A DNA stretch of 49,154 nt, taken from contig QIFB01000002.1 in assembly GCA_003230545.1 (NCBI GenBank), positions 1 to 49,154 of the forward strand. The letters run 5' to 3'. A program made the position numbers and the translations under genes. Source of the stretch: Gammaproteobacteria bacterium (GTDB lineage Bacteria > Pseudomonadota > Gammaproteobacteria > UBA9214). Below are positions 281-46,792 of the stretch, in pieces. The stretch's first letter is position 1. Every line of letters begins with the position of its first letter. The notes under the pieces are model-generated. The model made no database searches and had not been told where the DNA came from. It saw only the letters and a list, made by a program, of their open reading frames with translations.

Positions 281-606
281 ATCCCTGATTGAGCAAATTG
301 CACCTTTCGAGCGTGAATCCGGTGTCCCTGGCAGGCCCCCTTGTCAGGGAACGCTGCAAGTCCATCCCTGGACGCTCAACGGCTTCATCCCTGAAGCCGA
401 TGTCCCTGACAAGGGGGCCACACCGGATTGCATGACGCAAAAATCTGTACGGTTACTCGGGGTACAGGGTGAATTCTCTAGACCGTTGGCCGCAGGGATG
501 CGGCCATCGAGCTTACAGGGACGTACTTGCAGCGTGTCTTGAGAAATCCCCCTGCACCCCGAGTGACCTTGCTCGGACCGTGCAACCTGCTCGATCAGGG
601 GAACAG
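281..606 (+). repeat. Nested-palindromic structured intergenic element, copy 1 (most degenerate copy)
   Basis: Same architecture as 25922-26253. It carries the invariant 68-nt core at 343-410 and the invariant 32-nt GACCGTTGGCCGCAGGGATGCGGCCATCGAGC at 481-512. Outer arms CCCTGATTGAGCAAATTGCAC / GTGCAACCTGCTCGATCAGGG are imperfectly complementary. It lies between the convergent protease and hisC stops. The strand label only gives orientation relative to the other copies. Confidence 0.85.
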
Positions 607-621
607 TCAAGTCCGGTGAAA

Positions 622-1704
622 TCAGAGGCATTCAGCGAGGGCTGCAAGGAACGCGGCATTTTCCTCCGGGCTGCCCACGGTCACCCGCAGGCAGTCCGCC
701 AGCGCCGTCACGGTTCCATTCAGGTTCTTGATCAAGATACCGCGCTCCTTGAGGCCGGCAAAAATTGCATCCGCACGACCCGGTGGTGTGCGTAACAGAA
801 TGAAATTGGCTTCGCTGGGAAACACGGTCAGCCCCGGCATTTCCTGCAATTGTGCAGACAGCGCTGCCCGGTCACGGCGCAAGCTGTCGGTCTGTTCGGA
901 AAACACGTCATAGTGCTGCAGGGCAAACACGCCGCATGCCTGGTTCAGCGTACTGATGTTGTAGGGCAGACGCGTTTTTTCGAACTCGGCAAGCCACGCT
1001 TCGGGCCCGGCCAGCAGACCAAGGCGCAGACCGGCAAAACCGATCTTGGACAGTGTTCGCAGCACCAGCAGGTTTTCCGTATCCGGTACTGCCGGCAGAA
1101 AACTGTGTTCGGTAAACGGCGCATAGGCCTCGTCGATCACCACCAGGCCGGGGGCATGTTCGATAATGGCCTCGACGGCGGTCCGGTCGAACAGGTTGCC
1201 GGTGGGATTATTCGGCCATGCCAGGAACACCACGGCCGGTTGCCGGTTGGCTATTTCAGCAAGCAGCGCCTCTGCGTCCAGCGTGAAGTCGGCGCGCAGC
1301 GGCACGCCGGCAAACTCCAGTCCGCACACCGTGGCAATCTGGCGATACATGACAAAGGTGGGTTCCGGCGCCATGATGACCCGGCCCGGAGCCGCGACGG
1401 TCTGGATGATCATCTGGATCAGCTCATCCGACCCGTTCCCGAGCATCACCGCGGCGCTGTCCGGCACCGCCATGCGCCGGCGCAGTTCCTGTTTCAATGC
1501 GGTGGCCTGCGGGTCCGGGTAGCGGTTCAGCTCGAGCGTACGCAACACCTCGAACCAGTCATCCAGCAGTGACTCCGGCCAGCGGTACGGGTTCTCCATC
1601 GCATCCAGCTTGATCAGGTTACCGGGGTCCGGCACGTGGTAGGCCGGGAGTGCACGCAGCTCGGGCCGCACCAGTTGGTCGATCCTGTCGTTTGCTGCCG
1701 TCAT
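622..1704 (-). CDS. hisC: Histidinol-phosphate aminotransferase
   Basis: 360-aa ORF with a HisC-like N-terminus ([11 protein letters not shown]...[10 protein letters not shown]) and class-II aminotransferase length. Its ATG overlaps the hisD stop (ATGA). Lies in a his operon context. Confidence 0.9.
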
Positions 1705-9700: not shown

Positions 9701-10222
9701 ATGCAAGACATCCTCGAGAAAGCGCGTCCCATCCGCCTGCTGATATTCGATGTCGACGGGGTACTCACTGACGGCAGCCTGTTCATTGGCGATGATGGCC
9801 AGGAATACAAGGCATTCAACTCGCGCGACGGCCACGGTATCAAGATGCTCATGGGCTACGGCATCGAGGTCGCCATCATTACCGGTCGCACTTCAAAGGT
9901 CGTTGAGCACCGCATGCAAAATCTGGGGGTCACCCGCGTTTACCAGGGGCAACTGGACAAACTGAAGGCATACGACGTCCTGTCCGAAGAACTCGGCATA
10001 GCACACGAGGAGATTGCCTATGTCGGTGACGATGTCGTCGACCTCCCGGTGATGCGCCGCGTTGGACTCGCCATTGCCGTGCAGGATGCCCACCCGCTGG
10101 TCATAAAACACAGTCACTGGCAAACACCGAGTCCGGGCGGTTGCGGTGCCGCTCGCGATGTTTGCGAAATGCTCATGGAGGCGCAGGGTGTGCTGGATGA
10201 CGAGATGAGCAAATACCTTTGA
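9701..10222 (+). CDS. kdsC: KDO-8-phosphate phosphatase (HAD superfamily)
   Basis: 173 aa. Has FDVDGVLTDG (HAD motif I) and YVGDDVVDLP (motif IV). Follows kdsD. Confidence 0.9.
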   Translation: MQDILEKARPIRLLIFDVDGVLTDGSLFIGDDGQEYKAFNSRDGHGIKMLMGYGIEVAIITGRTSKVVEHRMQNLGVTRVYQGQLDKLKAYDVLSEELGIAHEEIAYVGDDVVDLPVMRRVGLAIAVQDAHPLVIKHSHWQTPSPGGCGAARDVCEMLMEAQGVLDDEMSKYL

Positions 10223-18710: not shown

Positions 18711-19105
18711 TGCTGTTCTCCTGATCGAGCAGACTGCATAGTCCGAGCAAGGTTACTCGGGGTCCAGGGAGAGACAGCTCAAGACCCGCTGTAAATACAT
18801 CCTGGTCACTCCCGGCATCCTGCCTCCCGCGACACTCGTACATCCCTGTACGTCGTACGCTCGATGGCCGCATCCCTGCGGCCAACGGTCTTGATCTATC
18901 TCTCCCTGGACCCCGAGTAACCGTACAGATTGTTGCGTCATGCAATCCGGTGCCCCCGGTCGTCCCCCTTGTCAGGGACATCGGCTTCAGGGATGAAGCC
19001 GTTGAGCGTCCAGGGATGGACTTGCAGCGTTCCCTGACAAGGGGGACGACCGGGGACGGCGGATGCACGCTCGACAGGTGCAGTCCGCTCGATCAGGAGA
19101 ACAGC
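18711..19105 (-). repeat. Nested-palindromic structured intergenic element, copy 2 (inverted relative to copies 1 and 3, with an extra ~55-nt module)
   Basis: The reverse complement aligns end to end with 25922-26253. The 68-nt core at 18971-19038 and the 32-nt block at 18859-18890 are identical to the other copies. Terminal arms TGCTGTTCTCCTGATCGAGC / GCTCGATCAGGAGAACAGC are perfect inverted repeats. It starts 11 nt after the ptsI stop and ends 92 nt before the mgtE ATG. Confidence 0.9.
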
Positions 19106-19197
19106 GAAACATTTACCCTGCCCTGCTTACTTACCGAATGTTGGGGAGGCTGTTACACTTCGCCCAACCCAGCCCGAAGTGTATTTGAGCCGCCGCC

Positions 19198-25921: not shown

Positions 25922-26253
25922 TTTCCCTGAGTGAGCGAACTGCACCTGCCGAGCGTGCATCCGCCGTCCCCGGCAGGCGCCCCTGTCAGGGAACGCTGCA
26001 AGTCCATCCCTGGACGCTCAACGGCTTCATCCCTGAAGCCGATGTCCCTGACAGGGGCGCCTGCCGCGTACACCGGATTGCATGACGCAACAGTCTGTAC
26101 GGTTACTCGGGGTCCAGGGGGGTTGCTCAAGACCGTTGGCCGCAGGGATGCGGCCATCGAGCGTACAGGGATGTATTTACAGCGGGTCTTGAGCAACCCC
26201 CCTGGGCCTCGAGTGACCTTGCTCGGACTGTGCAGTTCGCTCACTCAGGGAAA
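25922..26253 (+). repeat. Nested-palindromic structured intergenic element, copy 3 (best-preserved copy)
   Basis: A perfect 24-bp outer stem pairs 25922-25945 with 26230-26253. A perfect 21-bp stem (25972-25992/26045-26065) encloses two hairpins with TCCC loops. A 34-bp stem (26101-26134/26185-26218, only G:T exceptions) encloses two hairpins with GGGA loops. The element begins 67 nt upstream of the transcarbamylase ATG. Confidence 0.92.
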
Positions 26254-39319: not shown

Positions 39320-39407
39320 GTAGCCCGGATGCAGCGTTGCGGAATCCGGGGCTTAAATTGAGACAAGTCCCCCGGGTTCCGGCCCTCCGGGCCTGCACCC
39401 GGGCTAC
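39320..39407. repeat. REP inverted pair of the GTAGCCCGGAT family
   Basis: GTAGCCCGGATGCAGCGTTGCGGAATCCGGGGC (39320-39352) and inverted CCCGGGTTCCGGCCCTCCGGGCCTGCACCCGGGCTAC (39371-39407). Lies in the lptE-holA spacer. Confidence 0.75.
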
Positions 39408-42609: not shown

Positions 42610-43149
42610 ATGAGTGAGGAAAAATCCACCCGTGAAAAATGGCTCGCTGCCTATGACGACATGATGGTGCGGGTAAAAACCGCCATCGAGGAAGCCGGGG
42701 AAGCCGCGGGCCCTGTCCTGCAGCGCTATATTCACAATGCCCGGGACACGGCCATCGAACTCGGCGAGCTGACGCGGGAAGAGGCCGATAAGATCGCCAC
42801 CTACCTGGAACGGGATGTCGCGGACGCCGGCAGGCACCTTGCAGACACCGGCCACCAGCTCGGCGACTGGCTGCGCTTCGATATCGACCTGATCGAGGAC
42901 CGCCTGCTGGATGCACTGTTACTGGCCGCCGACCACACCCGGCTGGAAATCCAGCAGTTCGAGCACGACATCCAGGAAGGGCCGGCATGGAATACCGGCG
43001 AGGTCACCGGACCTGGTACCCTGGTATGCGTATCCTGCGGCAGCATCATGCGCTTCCATGCCACCGGGTATATCCCGAACTGCCCCAATTGCGAGCACAC
43101 GGTGTTTCATCGCAAGACCGCCCGCGATGAGCTGGATGATAAAACGTAG
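42610..43149 (+). CDS. Zinc-ribbon DUF1451 protein (YbeL-like)
   Basis: About 179 aa with a helical N-terminal part and a C-terminal CxxC...CPNC zinc ribbon (LVCVSCGSIMRF...IPNCPNCEHTVF). Adjacent to and divergent from leuS, like E. coli ybeL. ATG 42610 has an AGGA RBS; alternative starts are 42601 and 42577. Confidence 0.7.
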   Translation: MSEEKSTREKWLAAYDDMMVRVKTAIEEAGEAAGPVLQRYIHNARDTAIELGELTREEADKIATYLERDVADAGRHLADTGHQLGDWLRFDIDLIEDRLLDALLLAADHTRLEIQQFEHDIQEGPAWNTGEVTGPGTLVCVSCGSIMRFHATGYIPNCPNCEHTVFHRKTARDELDDKT

Positions 43150-43185
43150 CCCGGATGCAGCGCAGCGATAAAGGGGCCGGATACA
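43146..43185. repeat. Single REP unit of the GTAGCCCGGAT family
   Basis: GTAGCCCGGATGCAGCGCAGCG... Its TAG is the stop codon of the preceding DUF1451 gene. Confidence 0.55.
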
Positions 43186-46691: not shown

Positions 46692-46792
46692 GTAGCCCGG
46701 ATGGAGCATGGCGGAATCCGGGGAACTTGTTTGCAACAGCTTCCCGGATTCCGGCCTTCGGCCTCCATCCGGGCTACGACTATCCGGGCTAC
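46692..46792. repeat. REP cluster of the GTAGCCCGGAT family (direct, inverted, plus a partial unit)
   Basis: GTAGCCCGGATGGAGCATGGCGGAATCCGGGG (46692-46723), inverted CCCGGATTCCGGCCTTCGGCCTCCATCCGGGCTAC (46743-46776), and partial ATCCGGGCTAC (46782-46792). Lies in the ybeZ-ybeY spacer. Confidence 0.75.

Follow-up and report, generated by a model that had tools for sequence, protein, structure and literature searches.

A dispersed gammaproteobacterial repeat module whose paired GGA hairpins may form a bipartite CsrA/RsmA site

CsrA/RsmA is a master post-transcriptional regulator, and its dimers bridge two sites lying 10–63 nt apart. The consensus selected by SELEX for Escherichia coli CsrA is RUACARGGAUGU, the RsmE(-hcnA) consensus is A/U-CANGGANG-U/A, and the repeat of CsrB reads CAGGA(U/C/A)G. 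The decoy RNAs of this system, CsrB and CsrC along with RsmX, RsmY and RsmZ, are restricted to Gammaproteobacteria and present GGA in C-G-closed hairpin loops, with 5 to 22 sites per RNA; each is encoded by a single-copy gene that has a GacA/UvrY-dependent promoter and ends in an intrinsic terminator. The known antagonists of CsrA are thus a few dedicated sRNA genes and, to our knowledge, none is known for many marine and environmental Gammaproteobacteria.

Two Rfam entries and several classes of chromosomal repeats also bear on the element described here. TwoAYGGAY (RF01731, clan CL00106; Weinberg et al. 2010, PMC2864571) is an orphan motif whose sources are gut metagenomes, Gammaproteobacteria and Clostridiales, and for which a motif-annotation study predicted CsrA binding (PMC4333381). 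Ysr224 (RF02770) has been reported as a multi-copy, expressed and temperature-responsive sRNA of Yersinia. REP/REPIN elements, which RAYT transposases mobilise, and MITEs, in turn, are short, non-coding, intergenic, high-copy palindromic repeats enriched at 3′ gene ends. Our literature searches turned up no study that ties CsrA sites to bacterial REPs or MITEs.

Here, we analyzed a 49,154-nt stretch of gammaproteobacterial DNA (hereafter, the window), in which a local repeat with CsrA-like loops had been predicted. The repeat is real, but its basic unit turned out to be a single Y-shaped module of ~120 nt, which belongs to a broad family and, in this lineage, is an insertion absent from relatives. 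The window contains six copies of the module, arranged as three inverted doublets within repeats of 320–390 bp, and a covariance model finds exactly these six:

283..600, no strand assigned: composite copy 1, with modules at 334-419 (minus) and 451-568 (plus) scoring 86.5 and 75.8 bits; covariance-model matches at 336-417 (minus) and 469-550 (plus)
18712..19105, no strand assigned: composite copy 2, in the opposite orientation to copies 1 and 3, with modules at 18751-18922 (minus) and 18945-19064 (plus); covariance-model matches at 18831-18890 (minus, with insertion) and 18964-19045 (plus)
25925..26250, no strand assigned: composite copy 3, with outer inverted repeats 25925-25945 and 26230-26250 (I2) around modules 3L and 3R; covariance-model matches at 25978-26059 (minus) and 26119-26200 (plus)
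25959..26078, minus strand: module 3L, holding the minus-strand hairpins 26023-26040 and 26002-26015 (inverted repeat I4)
26101..26218, plus strand: module 3R, a 34-bp stem and an apex with two GGA hairpins (inverted repeat I3)

Each repeat is a nested palindrome, in which outer inverted arms surround two Y-shaped arms that are diverged inverted copies of one module (I1), and in all three repeats the 5′ ends of both modules face the centre. The outer arms, 21–44 nt long and 82% complementary, are terminal inverted repeats. The 320–390 bp units lack coding signal and fold far better than shuffled sequence on both strands (z ~ −18). Module 3R, which scores 99 bits with covariance model R1 (E = 1.5e-23), folds at −92.1 kcal/mol on the GGA strand against −76.3 on the opposite strand (z = −12.7), and module 3L (86 bits with the same model) at −88.4 against −78.5 kcal/mol. 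The right module of copy 1 is partly decayed, with a mismatched stem and the loop CAGGGACG, and the minus-strand module of copy 2 carries an insertion of ~50 nt with extra GGA hairpins. The genes flanking the repeats are housekeeping ones, namely hisC/hisD, ptsI, mgtE, the gene for N-acetylornithine carbamoyltransferase and tldD; the closest homologues of the window MgtE come from uncultured Gammaproteobacteria and are 84–90% identical.

The four small hairpins of the original prediction are present letter for letter and at exactly the positions it gave:

26138-26155, plus strand: hairpin 1 of module 3R, GGCCGCAGGGATGCGGCC, that is GGCCG-CAGGGAUG-CGGCC; the variable-stem GGA hairpin of the family
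26163-26176, plus strand: hairpin 2 of module 3R, GTACAGGGATGTAT, that is GUAC-AGGGAU-GUAU; the most conserved part of the family
26023-26040, minus strand: hairpin of module 3L, GGCTTCAGGGATGAAGCC
26002-26015, minus strand: hairpin of module 3L, GTCCAGGGATGGAC

The motif CAGGGATG occurs 13 times on the two strands of the window, against 2.83 ± 1.55 expected, a count of at least 13 being reached in 0 of 100 shuffles of the window, and 12 of the 13 occurrences fall inside the three repeat copies. The predicted SELEX match is exact, since GUACAGGGAUGU equals RUACARGGAUGU letter for letter, and the predicted spacing of ~20–25 nt between paired sites agrees with the 23 nt, start to start, measured between the two GGA sites of module 3R (26143 and 26166). 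The claim of an identical CA-GGGA-TG centre in every hairpin holds for the four named here but not for the second loop in the right arm of copy 1 (CAGGGACG) or for the extra hairpins of copy 2 (CAGGATG); the latter do bear out the expectation of additional CsrA-type sites in that copy. RNAfold draws 4-nt GGGA loops for the window hairpins because A and U can pair within these loops. We dropped a reading of the loops as GNRA (GGGA) tetraloops, given that across the family the last loop base varies freely and the first stays A; what the family conserves is thus a hexaloop closed by C-G, A-N-G-G-A-N.

The family extends well beyond the window. A 31-nt search pattern spanning both loops, with 22 specified bases and, by our own calculation, ~0.07 chance matches expected in 596 Gb, matched at least 110 loci in a species-representative genome set, and at least 120 metagenome loci carry the module. 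The named taxa among the genome matches listed are all Gammaproteobacteria; the carriers among these matches include Marinobacter, Zobellella, Microbulbifer, Morganella, Sedimenticola, Litchfieldella and a Pseudomonas sp., as well as MAGs labelled Lysobacterales, Legionellales, Alteromonadaceae and others. Viral contigs gave no match to the pattern, the apex core had no BLAST match in the plasmid and E. coli collections, and composite copy 3 had none in the plasmid collection. A lone module makes up the unit in most of these loci. Its apex has the consensus ..CCGT-[hairpin 1]-c-GAGCGTAC-loop-GTATTyACmGCG-nGTC.. and forms a conserved three-way junction, ..CCGU-[hairpin 1, variable stem, loop C-ANGGAN-G]-c-GAGC-[hairpin 2, GUAC-ANGGAN-GUAU]-UYACMGCG...

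Some members depart from this plan. Three or four tandem GGA hairpins are found, for example, in window copy 2 and in the metagenomic locus L174 (~1286-1389, minus strand), where at least three tandem GGCCAUGGAUGGCC hairpins replace hairpin 1, so that the GGA sites are expanded within one module. In eight other loci (L115, L153, L154, L185, L191, L199, L203 and L211), the module lies inside a larger repeat unit of ~190 nt with a conserved 45-nt 5′ extension (GAAAGGTTCGGCGTCAGCGATAACCCGG...), on contigs rich in Pseudomonas-type REPs and in several flanking contexts. The possibility that the L115-type metagenome contigs represent one locus from different samples was rejected, as they are separate copies of the larger repeat unit with different flanks. 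In Zobellella denitrificans (L011, 3473-5226), a group II intron is found a few kb away from a module, which is probably a coincidence.

The Y shape is maintained by covariation. Among 69 fixed-length modules, in which helix 1 but not hairpin 1 had been pre-filtered for pairing, pairing is intact in 97.3% of cells and compensatory changes occur at 21 of the 26 pairs; in the stem of hairpin 1, 6 of 7 pairs covary. Covariation scores 0.855, compared with 0.19 for shuffles and no more than 0.17 for slid registers. Fold z-scores range from −9 to −19. The structure is, moreover, strand-biased. When stem mismatches were counted under a scoring scheme blind to mismatch type, the G·U type outnumbered the A·C type on the GGA strand by 59:23 in genomes (p = 9e-5) and by 96:28 in metagenomes (p = 7e-10), and per-element sign tests gave 33:12 and 47:6, respectively. 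This excess persists in every gene context, beside convergent and divergent genes as well as in both tandem orientations. The fold is more stable on the GGA strand in 156 of 173 modules, and the pair at the foot of hairpin 2 is G·U without exception, and on this strand only. The mismatch bias, the fold energies and the invariant G·U together indicate that the selected object is the GGA strand in single-stranded form, which, judging from these sequence data, is probably RNA.

The loops are constrained in a particular way. In a metagenome scan that fixed only the stem and 3′ junction of hairpin 2 and left all six loop bases free, the loop was A-N-GGA-N in 124 of 124 matches, with G 91, T 21, A 6 and C 6 at position 2 and T 57, C 43, G 16 and A 8 at position 6. 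Among 142 covariance-model matches, ~40 of which the 31-nt pattern had missed, hairpin 2 contains GGA in 141 and CANGGANG in 137, and hairpin 1 contains GGA in 133. At the level of sequence, the fixed positions (A, GGA and the C-G closing pair) and the free ones (N) match the CsrA/RsmA core CANGGANG exactly, and they are those of the SELEX, RsmE and CsrB sequences given above.

How, then, does the module relate to the systems outlined above? In searches of the window and 30 loci at gathering thresholds, it reached no Rfam family. Sub-threshold matches to miRNA precursors were artefacts of long hairpins, and RsmU of Xanthomonas is an unrelated 3′-UTR sRNA. By model score, TwoAYGGAY and Ysr224 are the nearest Rfam entries, both below threshold. 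The TwoAYGGAY model aligns on the same strand as the GGA loops at 23 bits against a gathering threshold of 43 (E = 0.32), and none of the 30 loci, AYGGAY-loop variants included, gave a gathering-level match. The two share a long, poorly conserved outer stem, two hairpins with A-x-GGA-x loops and short conserved junction bases, with AG between the hairpins and CG following hairpin 2; each has been reported from Gammaproteobacteria, and neither has an experimentally known function. However, the module loops are ANGGAN, with the first N being G in ~73% and Y in ~22% of cases (AGGGAU in the window), where TwoAYGGAY has Y; hairpin 2 of the module has a fixed 4-bp stem, whereas that of TwoAYGGAY is long; and the junction sequences differ. 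Also unlike TwoAYGGAY, the module family is high-copy, varies in presence between related genomes and often forms inverted doublets. The Ysr224 model aligns at 27.6 bits, against a gathering threshold of 70, on the strand opposite to the GGA loops. The two have an apex core in common, the reverse complement of Ysr224 reading ..GCGU-ccGCGCC-AGGGAU-GGCGCgg-CUCGAGCCUACAUGGAUGUAUUUACGGC.., and both are multi-copy within genomes, but Ysr224 is modelled on the opposite strand with a different fold and a short outer stem and is confined, as far as is known, to Yersinia and close relatives.

With the Csr/Rsm decoys, the module shares GGA in C-G-closed hairpin loops, with several such motifs exposed (two per module, more in copy 2), variants identical to CsrB-type repeats (CAGGAUG and CAGGGAUG), and a restriction to Gammaproteobacteria, which for the module applies to the named taxa among the matches listed. 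By contrast, it offers two sites rather than 5 to 22, a number suited to a single CsrA dimer, its copies are dispersed and apparently mobile, no decoy-type promoter or terminator was found with it in the stretches scanned, and it has no Rfam match to the decoys. Like REP/REPIN elements and MITEs, the module is a short, non-coding, intergenic, high-copy palindromic repeat enriched at 3′ gene ends; it shares with REPINs the preference for inverted doublets, although 80% of modules are singletons, and the window composites share with MITEs their small size, terminal inverted repeats, lack of coding capacity and presence/absence polymorphism. Nevertheless, the conserved core lacks GTAG, the apex is a three-way junction rather than a simple hairpin, no cognate transposase was found near the modules, and it is the centre that is conserved, whereas the stems, the counterpart of the terminal repeats, vary. 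A second, unrelated repeat of the GTAG type (GTAGCCCGGAT...) forms nested palindromes in the window at 39320-39407, 43146-43156 and 46692-46792; with 6 matches in the window against 0.8 expected, it indicates that this genome has ordinary REP-like elements besides the GGA modules.

The modules are intergenic and lie near gene ends, in 34 convergent, 16 divergent, 32 tandem sense and 28 tandem antisense contexts. The nearly equal tandem counts imply no co-orientation with host transcription. There is no recurrent neighbour gene among 681 flanking ORFs, the largest cluster being generic ABC ATPases, and no transposase near 225 modules; after this survey, an association with a transposase or with a specific gene family was rejected. 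Of 275 modules, 20% occur in close pairs, of which 23 have the 5′ ends facing inward, 3 the 3′ ends facing inward and 2 are tandem (p = 9e-5), so that the doublets of the window represent a general form in the family. Doublet members favour their own GGA strand, in 20 of 23 left and 18 of 23 right modules, a preference that RNA made from both DNA strands fits better than a one-strand transposition intermediate. Short motifs recur at the centres of several doublets (L209 713-803, L210 5873-5963, L180 2736-2823 and window 26079-26100), namely ATTGCATG and, immediately ahead of the right module, TTTGCAC; no sigma-70-like promoter was detected there.

The presence of the module varies between related genomes. 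In three syntenic relatives (L231–L233), whose MgtE is 86–88% identical, the module is missing both from the ptsI-mgtE spacer and from the rest of the 58 kb of syntenic sequence. In the window, copy 2 is located between the stop codon of ptsI and conserved sequence upstream of mgtE, and the spacer measures 497 nt with the element, compared with 109 nt in L232 and 287–288 nt in L233 and L231. Given its absence from all three relatives, the element is an insertion in the lineage of the window. No target-site duplication is definable, as the copy ends are not sharp and the empty sites of the relatives are too diverged for base-by-base alignment. The conserved sequence upstream of mgtE is a block of ~37 nt (CTTACCGAATGTYGGGGAGRCTGYTACACTTCGCCC), retained in the relatives in otherwise diverged intergenic sequence, and may be the mgtE promoter or belong to the mgtE leader; in L231 and L233, ~180 extra nt lie between this block and the mgtE start codon. 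Its positions are:

Window 19128-19165: ~37-nt block upstream of mgtE
L231 ~9736-9772: the same block
L232 ~9919-9955: the same block
L233 ~9737-9773: the same block

The stems evolve very differently from the apex. The module stem of 25–35 bp (mean ~30) differs in sequence in almost every copy, and its arms still remain complementary. Within the window, the three copies agree at every base of the left module's 84-nt apex, whereas the adjoining 12-bp stem segment has up to 5 differences between copies, each compensated on the other arm. Four copies in one MAG have identical hairpin 1 and apex and unrelated 27-bp stems. Compensated hypervariable stem patches were seen in the window at 25959-25992 and 26045-26078 and in the same arms of copies 1 and 2, and likewise near a perfectly conserved apex in L041, L047, L092 and L100. 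Possible causes include gene conversion among diverged copies, arm-to-arm template switching and regeneration of the stem at insertion. Insertion into pre-existing long palindromes was rejected, because the loci of one MAG show no comparable long hairpins that are empty. Fully diverged yet paired stems beside an invariant apex pose a puzzle for the evolution of palindromic repeats.

We propose, with moderate confidence, that this dispersed gammaproteobacterial Y-module acts as RNA of the GGA strand and that its apex hairpins form a bipartite CsrA/RsmA dimer site. The putative CsrA binding by the module is well motivated: the loop bases, the pair of sites 23 nt apart on a rigid scaffold, selection on the GGA strand, the gammaproteobacterial affiliation of the named taxa among the matches listed and the position of TwoAYGGAY, a predicted CsrA binder, as the nearest Rfam relative all argue for it. 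The active RNA would present its two CANGGANG hairpins to both faces of one CsrA/RsmA dimer and bind it with high affinity. Because a doublet places one module on each DNA strand, a transcript crossing it in either direction would carry one functional module; similarly, the idea that either strand of the window elements presents a functional site pair holds for the predicted sites, since these elements are inverted doublets. The accompanying suggestion that complementary UCCC loops mask the GGA sites by loop-loop pairing found no support. More speculatively, the many dispersed sites could titrate free CsrA, or CsrA could be recruited to the host transcript and alter its stability or translation.

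Several results count against this proposal as formulated. As the original prediction had indicated for the window, there is no csrA gene or GacA-box promoter there; no csrA gene was found in the genome loci either, although this is uninformative given that they are fragments of 8–21 kb, and the GacA/UvrY box (TGTAAGN6CTTACA) has no match with fewer than 3 mismatches and none near the elements, its count being at chance level. In copy 3 with its flanks and in two doublets from other loci, we detected no sigma-70-like promoter in or beside the elements and no Rho-independent terminator-like site. The lack of co-orientation (32 sense, 28 antisense) would be unexpected for a purely cis-acting mRNA element. 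To this should be added the lack of a recurrent neighbour gene, the alignment of the Ysr224 model to the opposite strand (UCC loops) and the failure to reach the gathering score of any family in the Csr/Rsm clan.

The main rival explanation is that the module is selfish mobile DNA of the REPIN/MITE kind, with the hairpins and GGA loops serving as recognition structures for a transposase or an enzyme acting on single-stranded DNA, so that the likeness to CsrA sites is incidental. Multi-copy, intergenic dispersal without a fixed neighbour gene, presence/absence polymorphism at ptsI-mgtE, the outer terminal inverted repeats of the window composites, the REPIN-like dominance of inverted doublets (23 to 3) and orientation independent of host genes are all what such an element would display. 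Furthermore, G·T pairs, being stable, are tolerated and favoured in single-stranded DNA hairpins too, a point that also counts against the CsrA reading. However, no transposase was found near the 225 modules, the plasmid and viral collections searched did not yield the module, and the GTAG signature of classical REPs, which occur separately in the window, is missing from it. The two members of a doublet are, moreover, optimised on opposite DNA strands, which is not expected of an IS200/RAYT-type mechanism confined to the top strand, and the agreement of fixed and free loop positions with CsrA specificity is exact. On balance, we consider this explanation fairly unlikely; it could, in any case, coexist with the CsrA reading, in which case the element would be both mobile and CsrA-binding. 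A more novel reading is that of a transposable CsrA decoy cassette: in whichever direction a transcript crossed the inverted doublet, RNase III would cut the perfect ~30-bp stem of its RNA, the stable twin-GGA apex so freed would sequester one dimer, genome-wide copy number and local transcription would govern how much free CsrA there is in lineages without classical CsrB/Rsm sRNAs, and the stems would be renewed by template switching or gene conversion. Such renewal would explain the extreme, compensated variability of the stems beside an unchanging apex, but we regard the scheme as a whole as distinctly unlikely.

Two further explanations invoke RNA without CsrA. The module might be a generic, long and stable REP-like hairpin that sits in 3′ untranslated or intercistronic stretches and stops exonucleases, acts as an insulator of transcripts or is a target of RNase III, its loops binding another factor or none. 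The excess of convergent over divergent gene contexts (34 vs 16, p = 0.015), the location near gene ends and the very stable stems of uniform length (mean ~30 bp) are in line with such a role, which nonetheless seems very doubtful to us: it leaves unexplained the invariant A and GGA in two loops beside free stems as well as the conserved junction, no T-run or terminator-like site was found in copy 3 with its flanks or in two other doublets, and a plain hairpin would serve either strand, contrary to the preference seen for the GGA strand. Finally, the functional strand could be the complement, with CAUCCCUG loops; it would be a C-rich sRNA whose targets for pairing are G-rich or Shine-Dalgarno sequences. 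It is this strand to which the model of Ysr224, an sRNA reported as expressed, temperature-responsive and multi-copy, aligns. The spectrum of stem mismatches and the fold energies favour the GGA strand instead, the invariant G·U pair that forms the foot of hairpin 2 turns into an A·C mismatch on the complement, and the variable N positions of the loops would weaken a fixed antisense pairing, all of which makes this the most improbable of the alternatives.

If the CsrA reading is correct, a high-copy, insertion-polymorphic module around a nearly ideal bipartite CsrA site would constitute a new layer of the Csr system. Mobile DNA could then rewire which transcripts recruit CsrA, and the dispersed sites could titrate the protein. 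Cultured hosts exist in Marinobacter, Zobellella, Microbulbifer and Morganella. The same reading would also provide a concrete function for the orphan Rfam entries TwoAYGGAY and Ysr224.
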